Assembly: GCA_964648195.1 (NCBI GenBank)
Contig: CAZYLL010000007.1
Location: forward strand, 64,102 to 128,101
Direction of reading: 5' to 3'
DNA length: 64,000 bases
DNA from: an uncultured Anaerolineaceae bacterium
Lineage (GTDB): Bacteria; Chloroflexota; Dehalococcoidia; Tepidiformales; Tepidiformaceae
Notes under the pieces: generated by a model
The model's input: the letters and a program-made list of their open reading frames with translations, nothing else
What the model was told of the DNA's origin: nothing
Database searches by the model: none
In this document: piece after piece, positions 53,700 to 57,473 of the stretch
Layout of the letters: every line of letters begins with the position of its first letter
How positions within the stretch are numbered: position 1 is the stretch's first letter
Position numbers and translations under genes: made by a program

Positions 53700-54548
53700 A
53701 TGCGAGACTTGCGAGGCAGGACAGCAATCGTAACTGGCGCATCGCGCGGACTGGGACAGTACATCGCGCGGGCGCTGGCAGCGGAGGGGGTGAACCTTTC
53801 GCTCGCGGCGCGTTCGGCGAGCGAGCTGGAGCGGGTCGCGGACGAGATGCGTGCCCTGGGCGTGCGCGCTATTGCGGTGCCCGGGGATGTGACCTCGGCA
53901 GCGGACCGCGCGCGGCTCGTCGAGGCGACGCTGGCAGAGTTCGGGCGGGTCGACATCCTGGTGAACAACGCCGGGATCGAGGTGACGGCGCACTTCGAGC
54001 GGCAGAGCGAGGAAGAGCTGGCGCGGACGATCGAGGTGAACCTGACGTCGGCGATCCTCCTGACGCGGCAGGTGGTCCCCGTGATGCTGGAACGAAATGC
54101 CGGGCATGTGGTGAACATGGCATCGCTGGCGGGGAAGGTGCCGGTGCCGTACAGCGTGCCCTACGCGGCTTCGAAGGCCGGGCTCATCGGGTTCACCGAG
54201 TCGTTCCGGAACGAGTTCAGGAAGCGCGGGGTGAGCGCAAGCGTGGTCTGCCCGGGGCTGGTCTCGGAAGCGGGCATGTATGTGCAGATGCAGCAGGACG
54301 CGGGCGTGAAGGAGAACTTCCTGGCCGGGACGGTGACCCCGGGGAAGGTTGCCTCGGACGTGGTGAAGGCGATCAAGCGGGACAGGCCGGAGTTGCTGGT
54401 GTACCGGGGGCCGGGCCGGCTGGTGAGCGCCTTTGCGGAGGCCGCGCCGGGTGTGTTCGAGCGGGTGTTCCCGGTATTCGGGACATTCACGCTGTTCCGG
54501 AAGATCGCCGACGCGAGGGAGAAGCGGGGGGAGAAGGCCGGCGGATGA
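53700..54548 (+). CDS. SDR family oxidoreductase
   Basis: It has TGASRGLG (TGxxxGxG), NNAG and YAASK (YxxxK). Confidence 0.88.
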   Translation: MRDLRGRTAIVTGASRGLGQYIARALAAEGVNLSLAARSASELERVADEMRALGVRAIAVPGDVTSAADRARLVEATLAEFGRVDILVNNAGIEVTAHFERQSEEELARTIEVNLTSAILLTRQVVPVMLERNAGHVVNMASLAGKVPVPYSVPYAASKAGLIGFTESFRNEFRKRGVSASVVCPGLVSEAGMYVQMQQDAGVKENFLAGTVTPGKVASDVVKAIKRDRPELLVYRGPGRLVSAFAEAAPGVFERVFPVFGTFTLFRKIADAREKRGEKAGG

Positions 54549-54576
54549 AGGGAACTCCCGGTGTCCCCATGAGGCG

Positions 54577-55353
54577 TCAGGCGTCGCCGACAAGGGTACT
54601 GGCGAAGATCTGCCACGCGAGGGCCGACTTCGCGGTCAGGCTGAGGAGGACGTAGACGGCTTCTCCGAAGAGGTAGTCGCGCCAGGGGCCGGTGCGGCGG
54701 TACTGCAGGACCATGTTGACCGCGAAACAGTTGAAGAAGACGAAGAGCGACACGAAGATGCCGACGACGAAGCCGGGCGGCGAGGCTTCGAAACCGGGGC
54801 TGGTGAAGTAGATGGCGATGGCGATCCACGGCACGGCCCCGGCGAAACAGCCGAAGATGAACGCAGTCCAGTTGGGGTTGCCGGGCTCCTCGTAGTGCTC
54901 CATCAGGAGTCCGAACAGGATCATTGCGGCGTTGACGCCGAAGATGGCGACCAGCGCAGCGACATCGCTGATGCCCGTGAACATCGCGATGAGGACGACC
55001 ATGACCGAGGAGCTGACGGAATACTCGATCCAGCGGGCGTAGTTGCGATTGCGGCCGAGGTTGCGGGCGTACCAGCCGTAGACGCCCGGGGCGGAGATGA
55101 TCCAGTGAGCCGCCGCCGAGAGGAAGACGAAGAGGGCAACCCCCCAGGCGATGCGGACATCGAAGAGGTCGCGCAGTTCGGGGGGAGCCGAACCCGGGGC
55201 ATCGCTCATAAACGTCGCCGTAACGGGCAAGGAGAAGTCGTTGGCGAGGGCGAGGATAGCCACGCCCTGGGCGGCATGGAAGGCGCCCATCACCAGGTTG
55301 TAGAGACGGAGGCGGCGCAGCTGGCGTTCGCGTGGGGCGCCGGGGGTGCTCAT
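54577..55353 (-). CDS. heliorhodopsin
   Basis: It is a 7-TM protein carrying, in order, the blocks I recall from heliorhodopsins: ILALANDFSLPVT, RWIEYSVSSSVMVVLIA, IFGVNAAMILFG, FGCFAGAVPWI, and LSLTAKSALAWQIF (Schiff-base Lys). Confidence 0.9.
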   Translation of the reverse strand: MSTPGAPRERQLRRLRLYNLVMGAFHAAQGVAILALANDFSLPVTATFMSDAPGSAPPELRDLFDVRIAWGVALFVFLSAAAHWIISAPGVYGWYARNLGRNRNYARWIEYSVSSSVMVVLIAMFTGISDVAALVAIFGVNAAMILFGLLMEHYEEPGNPNWTAFIFGCFAGAVPWIAIAIYFTSPGFEASPPGFVVGIFVSLFVFFNCFAVNMVLQYRRTGPWRDYLFGEAVYVLLSLTAKSALAWQIFASTLVGDA

Positions 55354-55459
55354 CGTTTGTCCTTCGGGTGGGTTTGGGGGATGTCCCCGGTAGATGAACG
55401 AACGGCAAGGCTGCGGCGATCATCGGGGCGCGTTAACCGCCGGGCCCGGCGAAGCGTTG

Positions 55460-55489
55460 TTGATGCAAGCAGCCAATGGAGACTATAGT
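55460..55489 (+). promoter_or_regulatory. sigma70-like promoter, TTGATG-18 nt-TATAGT
   Basis: Read directly as gTTGATGcaagcagccaatggagacTATAGTctgcta. No annotated plus-strand gene lies immediately downstream. Confidence 0.55.
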
Positions 55490-55519
55490 CTGCTACATGT
55501 TCGAAGGGGGGCGCCGCCG

Positions 55520-55600
55520 ATGACGACAAAGACGCGAGCAGCTGCATTCCGGCTGCGCCTCAGTGCGCCCAGCGCCGGAAGAGTGCCCATCGAGCAATAA
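55520..55600 (+). CDS. possible 26-aa leader peptide / small ORF (MTTKTRAAAFRLRLSAPSAGRVPIEQ)
   Basis: The ATG is preceded by GAAGGGGGG 9 nt upstream. The ORF lies inside the promoter-to-terminator leader. Coding status is unproven. Confidence 0.25.
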   Translation: MTTKTRAAAFRLRLSAPSAGRVPIEQ

Positions 55601-55622
55601 ACGGGACGAGTCCGACCGTTCG

Positions 55623-55664
55623 AAGCCGTGGGCGTCACCAGACCAAACGCCCACGGCTTTTTTT
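55623..55664 (+). terminator. strong rho-independent terminator
   Basis: A 12-bp stem agccgtgggcgt/acgcccacggct with an 11-nt loop is followed by TTTTTTT. It lies 82 nt upstream of the ABC ATPase start. Confidence 0.8.
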
Positions 55665-55746
55665 GATCTCCGCTCTTGCCGGGGTGAGGAATGCCGGGGC
55701 AGCCCGGCCACTCGCCGGGAACGCCCGCCCCACGAGGAGGAGATGA

Positions 55747-56640
55747 ATGACGGTGGCAACCACAGAGCCAGAACAGTTTCGAGGGTTGCGGATCGAGGTC
55801 GACCCGCACGCCCGCGCCCTCGAAGTCGACGACGTGACCAAGGTGTTCCGGCAGGGGCCGGGACTCATCGGGCGGATGAAGGGGAAACGCGAAGAGCGCA
55901 AGCGGGTGGTCGCAGTTGACCACGTGAGCTTCGTGGTGGAGCGTGGGGAGATTTTCGGCGTGCTGGGACCGAACGGCACGGGAAAGAGCACGCTCATCCG
56001 GCTGATGTCGACGCTCCTGATGCCCGACACGGGGCGGGTGCGGGTGTTCGGGCTGGACGTGGAGCGGGACGAGGCGCAGGTGAAGCGGCTCATCAACCGC
56101 GTCTCGGTGGAGGCGTCGTTCTTCAAGAAGCTCTCGCCCATGGAGAACCTGATGTACGGGGCGCGGCTTTACGGCGTCGACCCGGCCTATGCGCGGCGCA
56201 AGGTCGTGGAGATCCTGACGCGGCTCGGGCTGGAGAACCGGTCGATCAGCTCTTCGATGGAAGACATGTCGCGCGGGATGCAGCAGAAGGTGGCGATTGC
56301 GCGGGCGTTCCTGACGGCCCCGGTGCTGCTGCTGCTGGACGAGCCGACGACCGGGCTCGACCCGCATTCGAAGCGGGAGGTGCAGGCGGCGGTGCGGGAG
56401 CTGCGCGACACGCACGAAGCGACGGTGGTGCTGACCACCCACGACATGCAGGAAGCGGACGAACTGTGCGACCGGATCGCGATCGTGGACAAGGGCCGGA
56501 TCGTGGCGCTGGATACGCCACAGGGGTTGAAAGACATGGTCCGGCAGCCGGGCGAAGCCCCGCCATCGCTGGAGGACGTCTTCCTGCGGCTAACGGGGAA
56601 GAAGCTGGAAGAAGCTGACCAGGAGGCAGAACAGTCATGA
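55747..56640 (+). CDS. ABC transporter ATP-binding protein (DrrA/ABC-2 type)
   Basis: It has Walker A GPNGTGKST, the signature MSRGMQQKV, Walker B LLLLDEPTTGLD and the H-loop TTHDM. Confidence 0.92.
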   Translation: MTVATTEPEQFRGLRIEVDPHARALEVDDVTKVFRQGPGLIGRMKGKREERKRVVAVDHVSFVVERGEIFGVLGPNGTGKSTLIRLMSTLLMPDTGRVRVFGLDVERDEAQVKRLINRVSVEASFFKKLSPMENLMYGARLYGVDPAYARRKVVEILTRLGLENRSISSSMEDMSRGMQQKVAIARAFLTAPVLLLLDEPTTGLDPHSKREVQAAVRELRDTHEATVVLTTHDMQEADELCDRIAIVDKGRIVALDTPQGLKDMVRQPGEAPPSLEDVFLRLTGKKLEEADQEAEQS

Positions 56641-57473
56641 CACTGGCGTATCACGAATTGCGGGCGAGCTACGCGTTCGTCGAGCGGAACATCAACCTGG
56701 TGAAGCGGTACTGGGGCTGGGAGCTGGTGTGGATGCTGTACACCATCGCGAACTCACTCGCGGTGGTGCTGATTGCGCGCGGGGCGAACACGGCCGTGGG
56801 CGGGCAGCCGCTGAGCACAGCGCAGGTGGACACGCTGATCCTGTTCCTGGCGATCGGGGCGCTGGTGTGGCACTACCTGGCGGTGGTGTTCCAAACGGTG
56901 AGCGAGATGATCAGCTGGGAGCGCTGGGAAGGGACGATCGAGTACACGTTCATGGCGCCGGTGCGGCGGGGCACACATATGGTGGGGACGGCAGTGTTCT
57001 CGCTGGTGTACGGGTTCGCGCACACGGCGGTCGTGCTCATCATCGTCGTGCTGGCGTTCGACCTGAACATGTCGCACGCGAACTACGTCTCGGCGAGCGC
57101 GGTCCTCATCGCCGGGAGCCTGTCGCTGGTTGGGATCGGGATCATGGGGGCGGTGCTGCCGCTGCTGTACCCGGAGCGTGGGGCGGAGATGACCCACGTG
57201 ATCCAGGCGGCGCTGGTGCTGATCTCGGGCGTGTACATCACGGCGAGCGAGATGCCGGAGCCGCTGGCAACGATCTCGATCTTCAGCCCTGCGACCTACG
57301 TCATCGAAGGGATCAGGTCGGCGCTGATCGACGGTGAGGGGTTTGCGGAACTCTGGCCGACGATGCTGGGGCTGGTCGCAAGCGGCATGCTGATGATCCC
57401 GCTGGGGGTGTACGTGTTTTCGCTGGGCGAGCGGTACGCGAAGCGGACGGGGCGGCTGAAGCGGAGCGGGTAG
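56637..57473 (+). CDS. ABC-2 type transporter permease
   Basis: It is a 6-TM protein whose start forms an ATGA overlap with the ATPase gene. Confidence 0.85.
   Translation: MTLAYHELRASYAFVERNINLVKRYWGWELVWMLYTIANSLAVVLIARGANTAVGGQPLSTAQVDTLILFLAIGALVWHYLAVVFQTVSEMISWERWEGTIEYTFMAPVRRGTHMVGTAVFSLVYGFAHTAVVLIIVVLAFDLNMSHANYVSASAVLIAGSLSLVGIGIMGAVLPLLYPERGAEMTHVIQAALVLISGVYITASEMPEPLATISIFSPATYVIEGIRSALIDGEGFAELWPTMLGLVASGMLMIPLGVYVFSLGERYAKRTGRLKRSG

Follow-up and report, generated by a model that had tools for sequence, protein, structure and literature searches.

The window analysed here is a stretch of 64,000 nucleotides from contig CAZYLL010000007.1 of an uncultured Anaerolineaceae bacterium of the phylum Chloroflexota, and the element under study is the leader that precedes a two-gene ABC-2 exporter operon within it. 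An earlier note, made from the letters of the window, had described this leader as an orphan promoter, a small open reading frame (ORF) and a strong terminator, and had offered three options for it: a cis-acting attenuator or riboswitch, a ribosome-dependent attenuator, or an independent small RNA (sRNA). The elements of the leader and the genes that follow it are:

55460-55465 and 55484-55489, plus strand: sigma-70-type promoter, with -35 TTGATG, an 18-nt spacer and -10 TATAGT; the pattern TTGAT...TATAGT is kept in congeners.
55498-55519, plus strand: region 1, the 5' untranslated segment with the Shine-Dalgarno (SD) sequence of the leader ORF, a proposed anti-antiterminator and mask of the ribosome-binding site (RBS).
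55520 (ATG) to 55598-55600 (TAA), plus strand: leader ORF of 26 codons with its own SD, predicted peptide MTTKTRAAAFRLRLSAPSAGRVPIEQ.
55529-55537, plus strand: codons K4-T5-R6, a second basic-x-basic motif.
55550-55558, plus strand: codons R11-L12-R13, where an R/K-x-R/K (+x+) motif offers a candidate site of ribosome stalling.
55583-55595, plus strand: region 2, 5' strand of the predicted antiterminator, GTGCCCATCGAGC, spanning codons V22-P23-I24-E25 and the first base of Q26, with conserved pairing to the T1 left arm.
55600-55620, plus strand: P1, a small hairpin (AACGG...CCGTT) right after the stop codon, the predicted apex of the antiterminator.
55622-55635 and 55647-55660, plus strand: regions 3 and 4, left arm GAAGCCGTGGGCGT and right arm ACGCCCACGGCTTT of the intrinsic terminator T1, with an 11-nt loop and a run of seven T at 55658-55664.
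55747-56640, plus strand: DrrA-like ABC ATPase, the first regulated gene of the proposed unit (Pfam ABC_tran, 3.3e-30).
56637-57473, plus strand: ABC-2 permease (Pfam ABC2_membrane, 4.9e-12), its start overlapping the ATPase stop codon.

The promoter claimed by the earlier note is the only sigma-70-like match in the 3 kb from 54000 to 57000, where shuffled sequences gave 0.4 +/- 0.7 matches, and transcription is predicted to start at about 55495-55497. The 26-codon ORF and its RBS-like sequence are likewise found at 55520-55600, the latter being a GGGGGG tract (55506-55511) that lies 8 nt upstream of the ATG. The terminator also bears out the original description, with a predicted free energy of -25.4 kcal/mol and a T-run that ends 82 nt before the ATPase start at 55747; a simple consensus terminator scan missed it solely through the 8-nt loop limit of that scan. 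The predicted leader as a whole (55495-55670, 176 nt) is more stable than its shuffles (z -2.55). A dispersed genome-wide repeat was considered as the source of the hairpin and ruled out, as the pattern CCGTGGGC...GCCCACGG is found once in the organism's own genome. The best NCBIfam match of the ATPase is drrA (249 bits, under the 312-bit cutoff), and the permease is co-conserved with the ATPase in all relatives. These matches suggest a DrrAB-like two-gene ABC-2 pump with a generic ABC-2 permease, an assignment that stays below the family cutoff.

To investigate the conservation of the leader, positions 55440-55750 were compared by BLAST with 40 relatives. The whole segment was recovered at 74-91% DNA identity in 7 congeners, and in more distant relatives the terminator alone was matched, always just upstream of the ABC orthologue. 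When the 400 nt upstream of 21 ABC orthologues were extracted, the 18 with an intact promoter were found to share one order of elements: GTTAAC, TTGAT (-35), TATAGT (-10), SD, ORF, stop and terminator. In these 18 congeners a strong SD lies 36-39 nt after the -10 element, the ORF has 25-34 codons, and its stop codon lies 24-28 nt before the CCGTGGG core of the terminator left arm. A scan of one genome per species added 80 further ABC orthologues (58-97% identity), all of them labelled Chloroflexota or obviously mis-binned. A GC-rich hairpin with a U-run stands upstream of the ABC orthologue in 75 of the 81 loci, and automatic parsing recognised, in at least 59 of them and in both Tepidiformales and Anaerolineae, an SD-led ORF of 21-35 codons whose end lies 5-30 nt short of the hairpin; the loci are phylogenetically related, so that such counts overstate independence. 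The figure of 59 is a lower bound since the parser misses true leaders, two of which (L070 and L097) were spotted by eye; L100, L104 and L117 were excluded as spurious parses, and L108 was left out of the peptide statistics. The earlier note had exposed its proposal to the objection that the region might not be conserved upstream of orthologous transporters; it is conserved there, the small ORF included.

This distribution bears directly on the possibility that the region is a self-standing gene of about 170 nt for a trans-acting sRNA, lying upstream of the exporter by chance. Such a gene would be expected to have its own promoter and strong terminator, as this one does, and terminated attenuator RNAs can act in trans, as in the case of rnTrpL (PMC7968998), so that the terminated leader RNA could accumulate here too. 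The unit, however, occurs only once in its own genome, is nowhere seen without the ABC-2 operon, is always co-oriented with the ABC gene and lies 53-92 nt from the ABC start in congeners; moreover, its alternative pairings with its own terminator (see below) follow a cis-regulatory logic. We regard a chance-placed sRNA gene as the most improbable of the explanations considered here. Of the three options in the earlier note, it is the ribosome-dependent attenuator that the comparative evidence favours, whereas the sRNA is disfavoured by the single-copy occurrence of the unit, always at the ABC-2 operon, and the riboswitch by the want of any Rfam match.

The terminator is the best supported of the RNA structures. 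In 30 Anaerolineae sequences 92% of the alignment cells of the T1 stem are paired and 9 of the 12 pairs show compensatory changes, a number reached by none of 500 shuffles, and the stem even switches between clades, from GCCGTGGG/CCCACGGC to GCCACGGG/CCCGTGGC. When the leader was folded from the last 12 codons of the ORF through the T1 left arm and loop, with the right arm withheld, the left arm paired with the 3' end of the ORF in all 59 parsed loci. In fixed alignments this antiterminator helix has 82% of its cells paired in Tepidiformales and 83% in Anaerolineae, as against 26-54% when the partner is slid. The antiterminator is thus supported by conserved complementarity and by the slid controls, rather than by significant covariation. 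The earlier note had conceived of a different antiterminator, formed by CGCCCA (55566-55571) and TGGGCG (55629-55634). Both segments are present and complementary, but the conserved antiterminator strand is that at 55583-55595, and the CGCCCA segment was rejected for this role as it is unconserved in L048, L049, L050 and L056.

A third pairing engages the other end of the leader. In the minimum free energy fold of the window 55498-55512 is paired with 55583-55597, that is, region 1 with region 2, and the window's 1:2 duplex has an energy of -23.9 kcal/mol. Folds from the transcription start to the stop codon show the end of the ORF paired with the leader SD/start region in about 40 of 58 loci. 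Both the 1:2 duplex (mean z -1.5 over the 58 loci) and the 2:3 duplex (mean z -1.9) exceed shuffled sequences in stability, by 5-6 kcal/mol. Region 1 (TGTTCGAAGGGGGGC, 55498-55512) in fact resembles a copy of region 3 (GTTCGAAGCCGTGGGCGT), with which it would compete for region 2. RNAalifold predicted no pairs on a MAFFT alignment of 14 Anaerolineae leaders (transcription start to stop), because the variable SD spacer was misaligned, and per-sequence duplex energies against shuffles were used in its place. A hairpin at the position of P1 is found in every lineage, and its sequence is unrelated between lineages. Computation thus shows the ORF, a set of mutually exclusive hairpins and the conservation of both, and the 1:2, 2:3 and 3:4 pairings together amount to a classical, trp-like four-segment layout.

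Across the phylum, the terminator stem retains the sequence GCCGYGGGC to an unusual degree. This is plausibly due to the requirement that region 2 encode the end of the peptide and pair with both region 1 and region 3, while region 3 must also pair with region 4. The same conservation could instead reflect recognition by a factor, as it would if the terminator were governed in cis but independently of translation, by a metabolite riboswitch or a protein-binding leader, and the ORF were incidental. Rfam 15 gave no match at gathering score in the whole window or at six related loci, and a permissive scan of 55300-55800 returned no family, with weak matches on the terminator hairpin only (best E-value 0.72); the earlier note, which had matched the leader to no riboswitch class, is in agreement with this. 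Furthermore, no multi-helix aptamer core is conserved, the sequence between the helices is free to vary, and the SD, the start codon and an in-frame stop at a fixed distance from the terminator are kept in the 59 parsed loci despite their differing ORF lengths. As the stem conservation is explained by the three-way pairing constraint together with coding, a regulator of this kind appears highly improbable.

The peptide itself shows two recurrent motifs. The +x+ motif is present in 43 of 58 leader peptides, as compared to 18.8 +/- 3.1 (maximum 29) in composition-preserving shuffles, an enrichment that is inflated by the kinship of the loci. It occurs in nearly every deep lineage and is absent mainly from one sister clade of the genus. 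In those Anaerolineae peptides that have it, the motif starts exactly 21 residues before the C-terminus in 20 of 26 cases, in peptides 28-33 residues long. The second motif, R-x-A/V-P-V/I-x(1-2)-stop, is retained at the C-terminus in forms such as RVPIEQ, SVPIV, APTV, RSAPVHR, RSAPTD and RIAPVRW. Constraint on the peptide and on the RNA cannot be separated at this end, because the C-terminal codons are themselves the antiterminator strand. The third position of the Arg codon does vary, in covariation with its pairing partner (pair 21/89 in the Anaerolineae alignment).

Among ten clades of equal-length leaders, 75, 71 and 93 variable sites fall at codon positions 1, 2 and 3, a weak third-position excess, and codon differences comprise 442 non-synonymous against 176 synonymous changes. 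Most positions of the peptide therefore seem to be near-neutral, which fits a regulatory leader and speaks against a functional small protein, without amounting to proof of translation. A small gene, a leaky terminator and an ABC exporter are a known layout of bacteriocin operons, and the small ORF might accordingly encode a functional peptide (exported, bioactive or a partner of the pump), with the terminator setting the ratio of peptide to transporter; the conservation of the C-terminal and +x+ motifs could be taken to agree with this. However, apart from the near-neutral evolution of most residues, the peptide has neither a signal nor a double-glycine leader, and no modification, processing or immunity genes adjoin it, the neighbours being heliorhodopsin and purF-like genes. 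The hallmarks of bacteriocin precursors and of ribosomally synthesised and post-translationally modified peptides, namely purifying selection on the peptide and adjoining processing or modification genes, were not found. Given also that the conserved C-terminal codons coincide exactly with the RNA pairing strand, and that the RBS pairs with the end of the ORF as in attenuator logic, we judge a functional peptide to be very improbable.

The abundance of arginine admits yet another interpretation, in which the same attenuator senses the supply of arginine or charged tRNA, with a shortage of Arg-tRNA causing ribosomes to stall at Arg codons. Arginine is frequent in the leader peptides, making up 4 of 26 residues in that of the window and as many as 7 of 25 in L056, and in the classical trp, his and leu leaders amino-acid supply is sensed via runs of regulatory codons. 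Against this, the basic residues of the +x+ motif are encoded by CGC, CGG, CGT, CGA, AGG, AAA and AAG, so that even the Arg codons are heterogeneous; no stretch of successive Arg codons is conserved, several clades have Lys at the first basic position (K-V-R-R), and the regulated genes specify an ABC-2 exporter and not arginine metabolism. We consider arginine sensing to be improbable.

In four Anaerolineae loci (L106, L113, L101 and L110) a conserved hairpin lies within the leader ORF, just 3' of the R/K-x-R/K codons, for example GCTCCGCCGATATCGGTGGAGA followed by TGTTTTGC; the terminator scan flagged it in L106 and L113. It may be a pause hairpin for RNA polymerase that synchronises transcription with the leading ribosome.

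Taken together, these observations make it probable that the leader is a ribosome-dependent (leader-peptide) transcription attenuator that controls the DrrAB-like exporter operon, and they allow us to infer a stall site, an inducer and a direction for its logic. Transcription would start near 55496 and yield a leader RNA with four interacting segments. During normal translation a ribosome whose A site has reached the stop codon would cover approximately 55583-55612, thereby blocking region 2 and opening P1, so that T1 would form, transcription would end at about 55664, a leader RNA of about 169 nt would be released and the pump would remain off. If no ribosome were loaded, region 1 would pair with region 2 and T1 would again terminate. 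Under inducing conditions a ribosome held at R11-L12-R13, the best candidate site, would cover approximately 55540-55570. Region 2, now free, could pair with region 3 some 30 nt downstream with P1 nucleating the helix, and the bulky ribosome between regions 1 and 2 should hinder the long-range 1:2 helix. T1 would then be pre-empted, and RNA polymerase would read into the exporter genes. The signal would be impaired translation, plausibly caused by a ribosome-targeting compound that the pump removes. Since ribosomes stall at +x+ in the erm(K)L, erm(D)L and mef(E)L leaders, the leading candidate for this signal is a natural product that inhibits translation.

Several points weigh against this attenuator model. 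The model is weakest in its geometry: a ribosome stalled at codon 12 frees region 2 and also leaves region 1 uncovered, so that the 1:2 helix would have to be excluded sterically or kinetically, or else by a second ribosome queued behind the first. It is only in one Anaerolineae clade (MARIRLL...) that the +x+ motif overlaps region 1. The sister clade that lacks +x+ (peptides such as MINAMLGATVFVPRPAVPNGRPAPTV) has nevertheless kept the whole architecture. Compensatory changes in the antiterminator are not above those of shuffles in the Tepidiformales and Anaerolineae alignments, because its core hardly varies. In the window itself the 2:3 and 1:2 duplexes surpass shuffles by only a modest margin (z -0.85 and -1.5), the start near 55496 and the end at 55664 are predicted positions, and the drrA match of the ATPase is below the family cutoff.

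The closest characterised system is bmrB-bmrCD of Bacillus subtilis, in which a multidrug ABC exporter is under ribosome-mediated transcription attenuation (Reilman et al. 2014, PMC4191407). Both have a short leader ORF upstream of an ABC exporter with an intrinsic terminator between leader and pump genes, and in both read-through is proposed to follow the behaviour of the ribosome on the leader, coupling the pump to translation stress. Nevertheless, they share no sequence relationship, and bmrCD is a heterodimeric type-I exporter, whereas the pump here is an ABC-2 (DrrAB-like) ATPase and permease. The Chloroflexota leader also differs in its R/K-x-R/K and C-terminal R-x-A/V-P-V/I motifs, in the predicted use of the RBS as anti-antiterminator strand, and in the twin terminators of its Anaerolineae relatives.

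In terms of peptide logic the closest counterparts are those of erm(K) and mef(E), whose leaders contain R-L-R (PMC4335068). The erm(K)L/erm(D)L (MTHSMRLR...) and mef(E)L (MTASMRLR) leaders are macrolide-inducible, have an R-L-R stall site and act by transcription attenuation (PMC4335068), and the +x+ arrest motif has been described more generally (PMC8298421, PMC12583479). It is by analogy with ErmDL, ErmKL and Mef(E)L (PMC8298421, PMC4335068) that we propose a stalling role for +x+ here. Those leaders resemble the present one in their Arg/Lys-x-Arg/Lys motif, which reads R-L-R in the peptide of the window, in the Rho-independent terminator downstream and in the regulation of an efflux-type function. 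On the other hand, those leaders are 8-14 codons long with a C-terminal stall, while here the motif is in the middle of an ORF of 21-35 codons, 15-21 codons before the stop; further, the pump is no known macrolide determinant, and one sister clade does without the motif. An Arg-Leu-Arg is also conserved in uORFC-6-1, a structured upstream ORF that precedes hflX in Bacillales and is a proposed sensor of stalled ribosomes (PMC8632094). Like the present family it was defined by comparative genomics and carries R-L-R within conserved RNA structure, but it differs in taxon, in its downstream gene (hflX as opposed to an exporter) and in its structure, and there is no sequence similarity between the two.

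The pairing scheme has its counterpart in Escherichia coli trpL, a four-segment attenuator whose 1:2, 2:3 and 3:4 pairings are mutually exclusive. As in trpL, a ribosome at the stop codon would cover segment 2 so that 3:4 terminates, and 1:2 pairing would lead to termination without a ribosome. In contrast to trpL, segment 1 is here the leader SD/start region and not a set of regulatory codons, there is no run of codons for one amino acid, an extra hairpin after the stop (P1) caps the antiterminator, and relatives extend the chain to a second terminator, T2 (segments 5 and 6). Thus, the sequence features expected of an attenuator are found computationally, namely an SD-led leader ORF, an intrinsic terminator, an antiterminator that overlaps the ORF, and conservation upstream of orthologues. 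The attenuation mechanism is familiar, but the Chloroflexota family is uncatalogued, a search of the literature having found no description of it; among its features, the enrichment of R/K-x-R/K at a fixed spacing, the segment acting as RBS mimic and the relay from T1 to T2 may be new.

A second, look-alike terminator, T2, is present 22-57 nt 3' of T1 in most Anaerolineae loci and in some Tepidiformales. A further helix, between the T1 right arm and the T2 left arm, is possible in all 28 loci with twin terminators (mean z -3.9), and both stems flip together between clades. In a model based on these pairings one upstream decision could disarm both terminators in relay.

A more elaborate version of the attenuator model, which we put forward tentatively and consider doubtful as a whole, is that the leader peptide is a drug-sensing arrest peptide kept phylum-wide. 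In this version +x+ would stall ribosomes only with a macrolide- or ketolide-like natural product that binds the exit tunnel, inducing export of the compound by a DrrAB-like pump. A second programmed pause, at the C-terminal R-x-A/V-P-V/I, would park the uninduced ribosome on the antiterminator strand, and the signal would pass from the RBS mimic to the antiterminator, to terminator 1 and, in Anaerolineae, to terminator 2. Coding together with three pairings would then explain the phylum-wide frozen stem.

Chloroflexota are abundant in soil, sediments and activated sludge and are barely tractable genetically, and to our knowledge almost nothing has been learnt of gene regulation at the RNA level in this phylum. 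An unannotated attenuator that stands phylum-wide before one conserved pump is hence a candidate for a new Rfam or upstream-ORF family. It also offers a clue to the role of the pump, as whatever stalls ribosomes on the leader is probably what the pump removes. If R/K-x-R/K is indeed the sensor, environmental Chloroflexota would have an inducible response to tunnel-binding antibiotics. Beyond this, the family provides a clear example of coding and several alternative RNA pairings jointly freezing a terminator sequence.

Further features of the window lie downstream and upstream of the leader proper:

55665-55671, plus strand: anti-SD segment GATCTCC, directly 3' of the T1 U-run, complementary to the ABC SD region GGAGGAGAT at 55735-55743.
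55693-55708, plus strand: hairpin GCCGGGGCAGCCCGGC without a U-tract, recognised from sequence and fold.
55432-55437 and 55455-55458, plus strand: upstream box of GTTAAC, 17 nt and CGTT, directly 5' of the sigma-70-type promoter.
54577-55353, minus strand: heliorhodopsin gene, the divergent neighbour of the leader.

The hairpin at 55693-55708 may be a remnant of T2, the window retaining only T1. Pairing between GATCTCC and the ABC SD is predicted in the window and its close relatives, and L049 keeps it at the same positions with altered sequence on both sides (CGTCCTCC and GGAGGAGAACG). In the sister clade its place is taken by a local CTCCTTCC...AAGGAG hairpin, with a copy of CCGTGGGC before it. 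These predicted pairings suggest that masking of the SD might add a translational layer to the control of the pump.

Upstream, GTTAAC is found at a fixed 51-52 nt from the -10 element in 18 of 18 congeners with the TATAGT promoter. The box may be an operator for a DNA-binding regulator, or it may be part of a second promoter resembling those of extracytoplasmic-function (ECF) sigma factors, whose spacing its AAC-N16/17-CGTT arrangement resembles. The back-to-back position of the leader promoter and the heliorhodopsin upstream region, to which the earlier note had drawn attention, is real. It appears to be incidental, since the heliorhodopsin gene is absent beside several congener loci that keep the leader; the leader therefore belongs to the pump and not to the divergent gene. 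On the other side of the operon a purF-like gene lies further downstream of the ABC-2 permease gene.

A few individual loci are of interest in their own right. In L041/L119, from a metagenome-assembled genome labelled Candidatus Amarobacter glycogenicus, the stop codon of the leader ORF is lost by a 1-nt difference (GCGCCCCCGTCTGA as against GCGCCCACCGTCTGA) and the ABC ATPase matches in two frames, which reflects either decay of the locus or long-read homopolymer errors. One relative (G021:C4:124959-125931) carries an additional ABC gene copy that is degraded by three in-frame stops and is still closely preceded by a copy of the terminator segment, which indicates that leader and pump were duplicated together. 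Finally, in the cultured isolates Thermanaerothrix solaris and T. daxensis (L121 and L124) the ABC match is preceded by twin GGCCACGGG...CCCGTGGCC hairpins at about 645-700 nt, a distance far greater than that at other loci; provided that their leader is intact, experiments would be most practical in these isolates.

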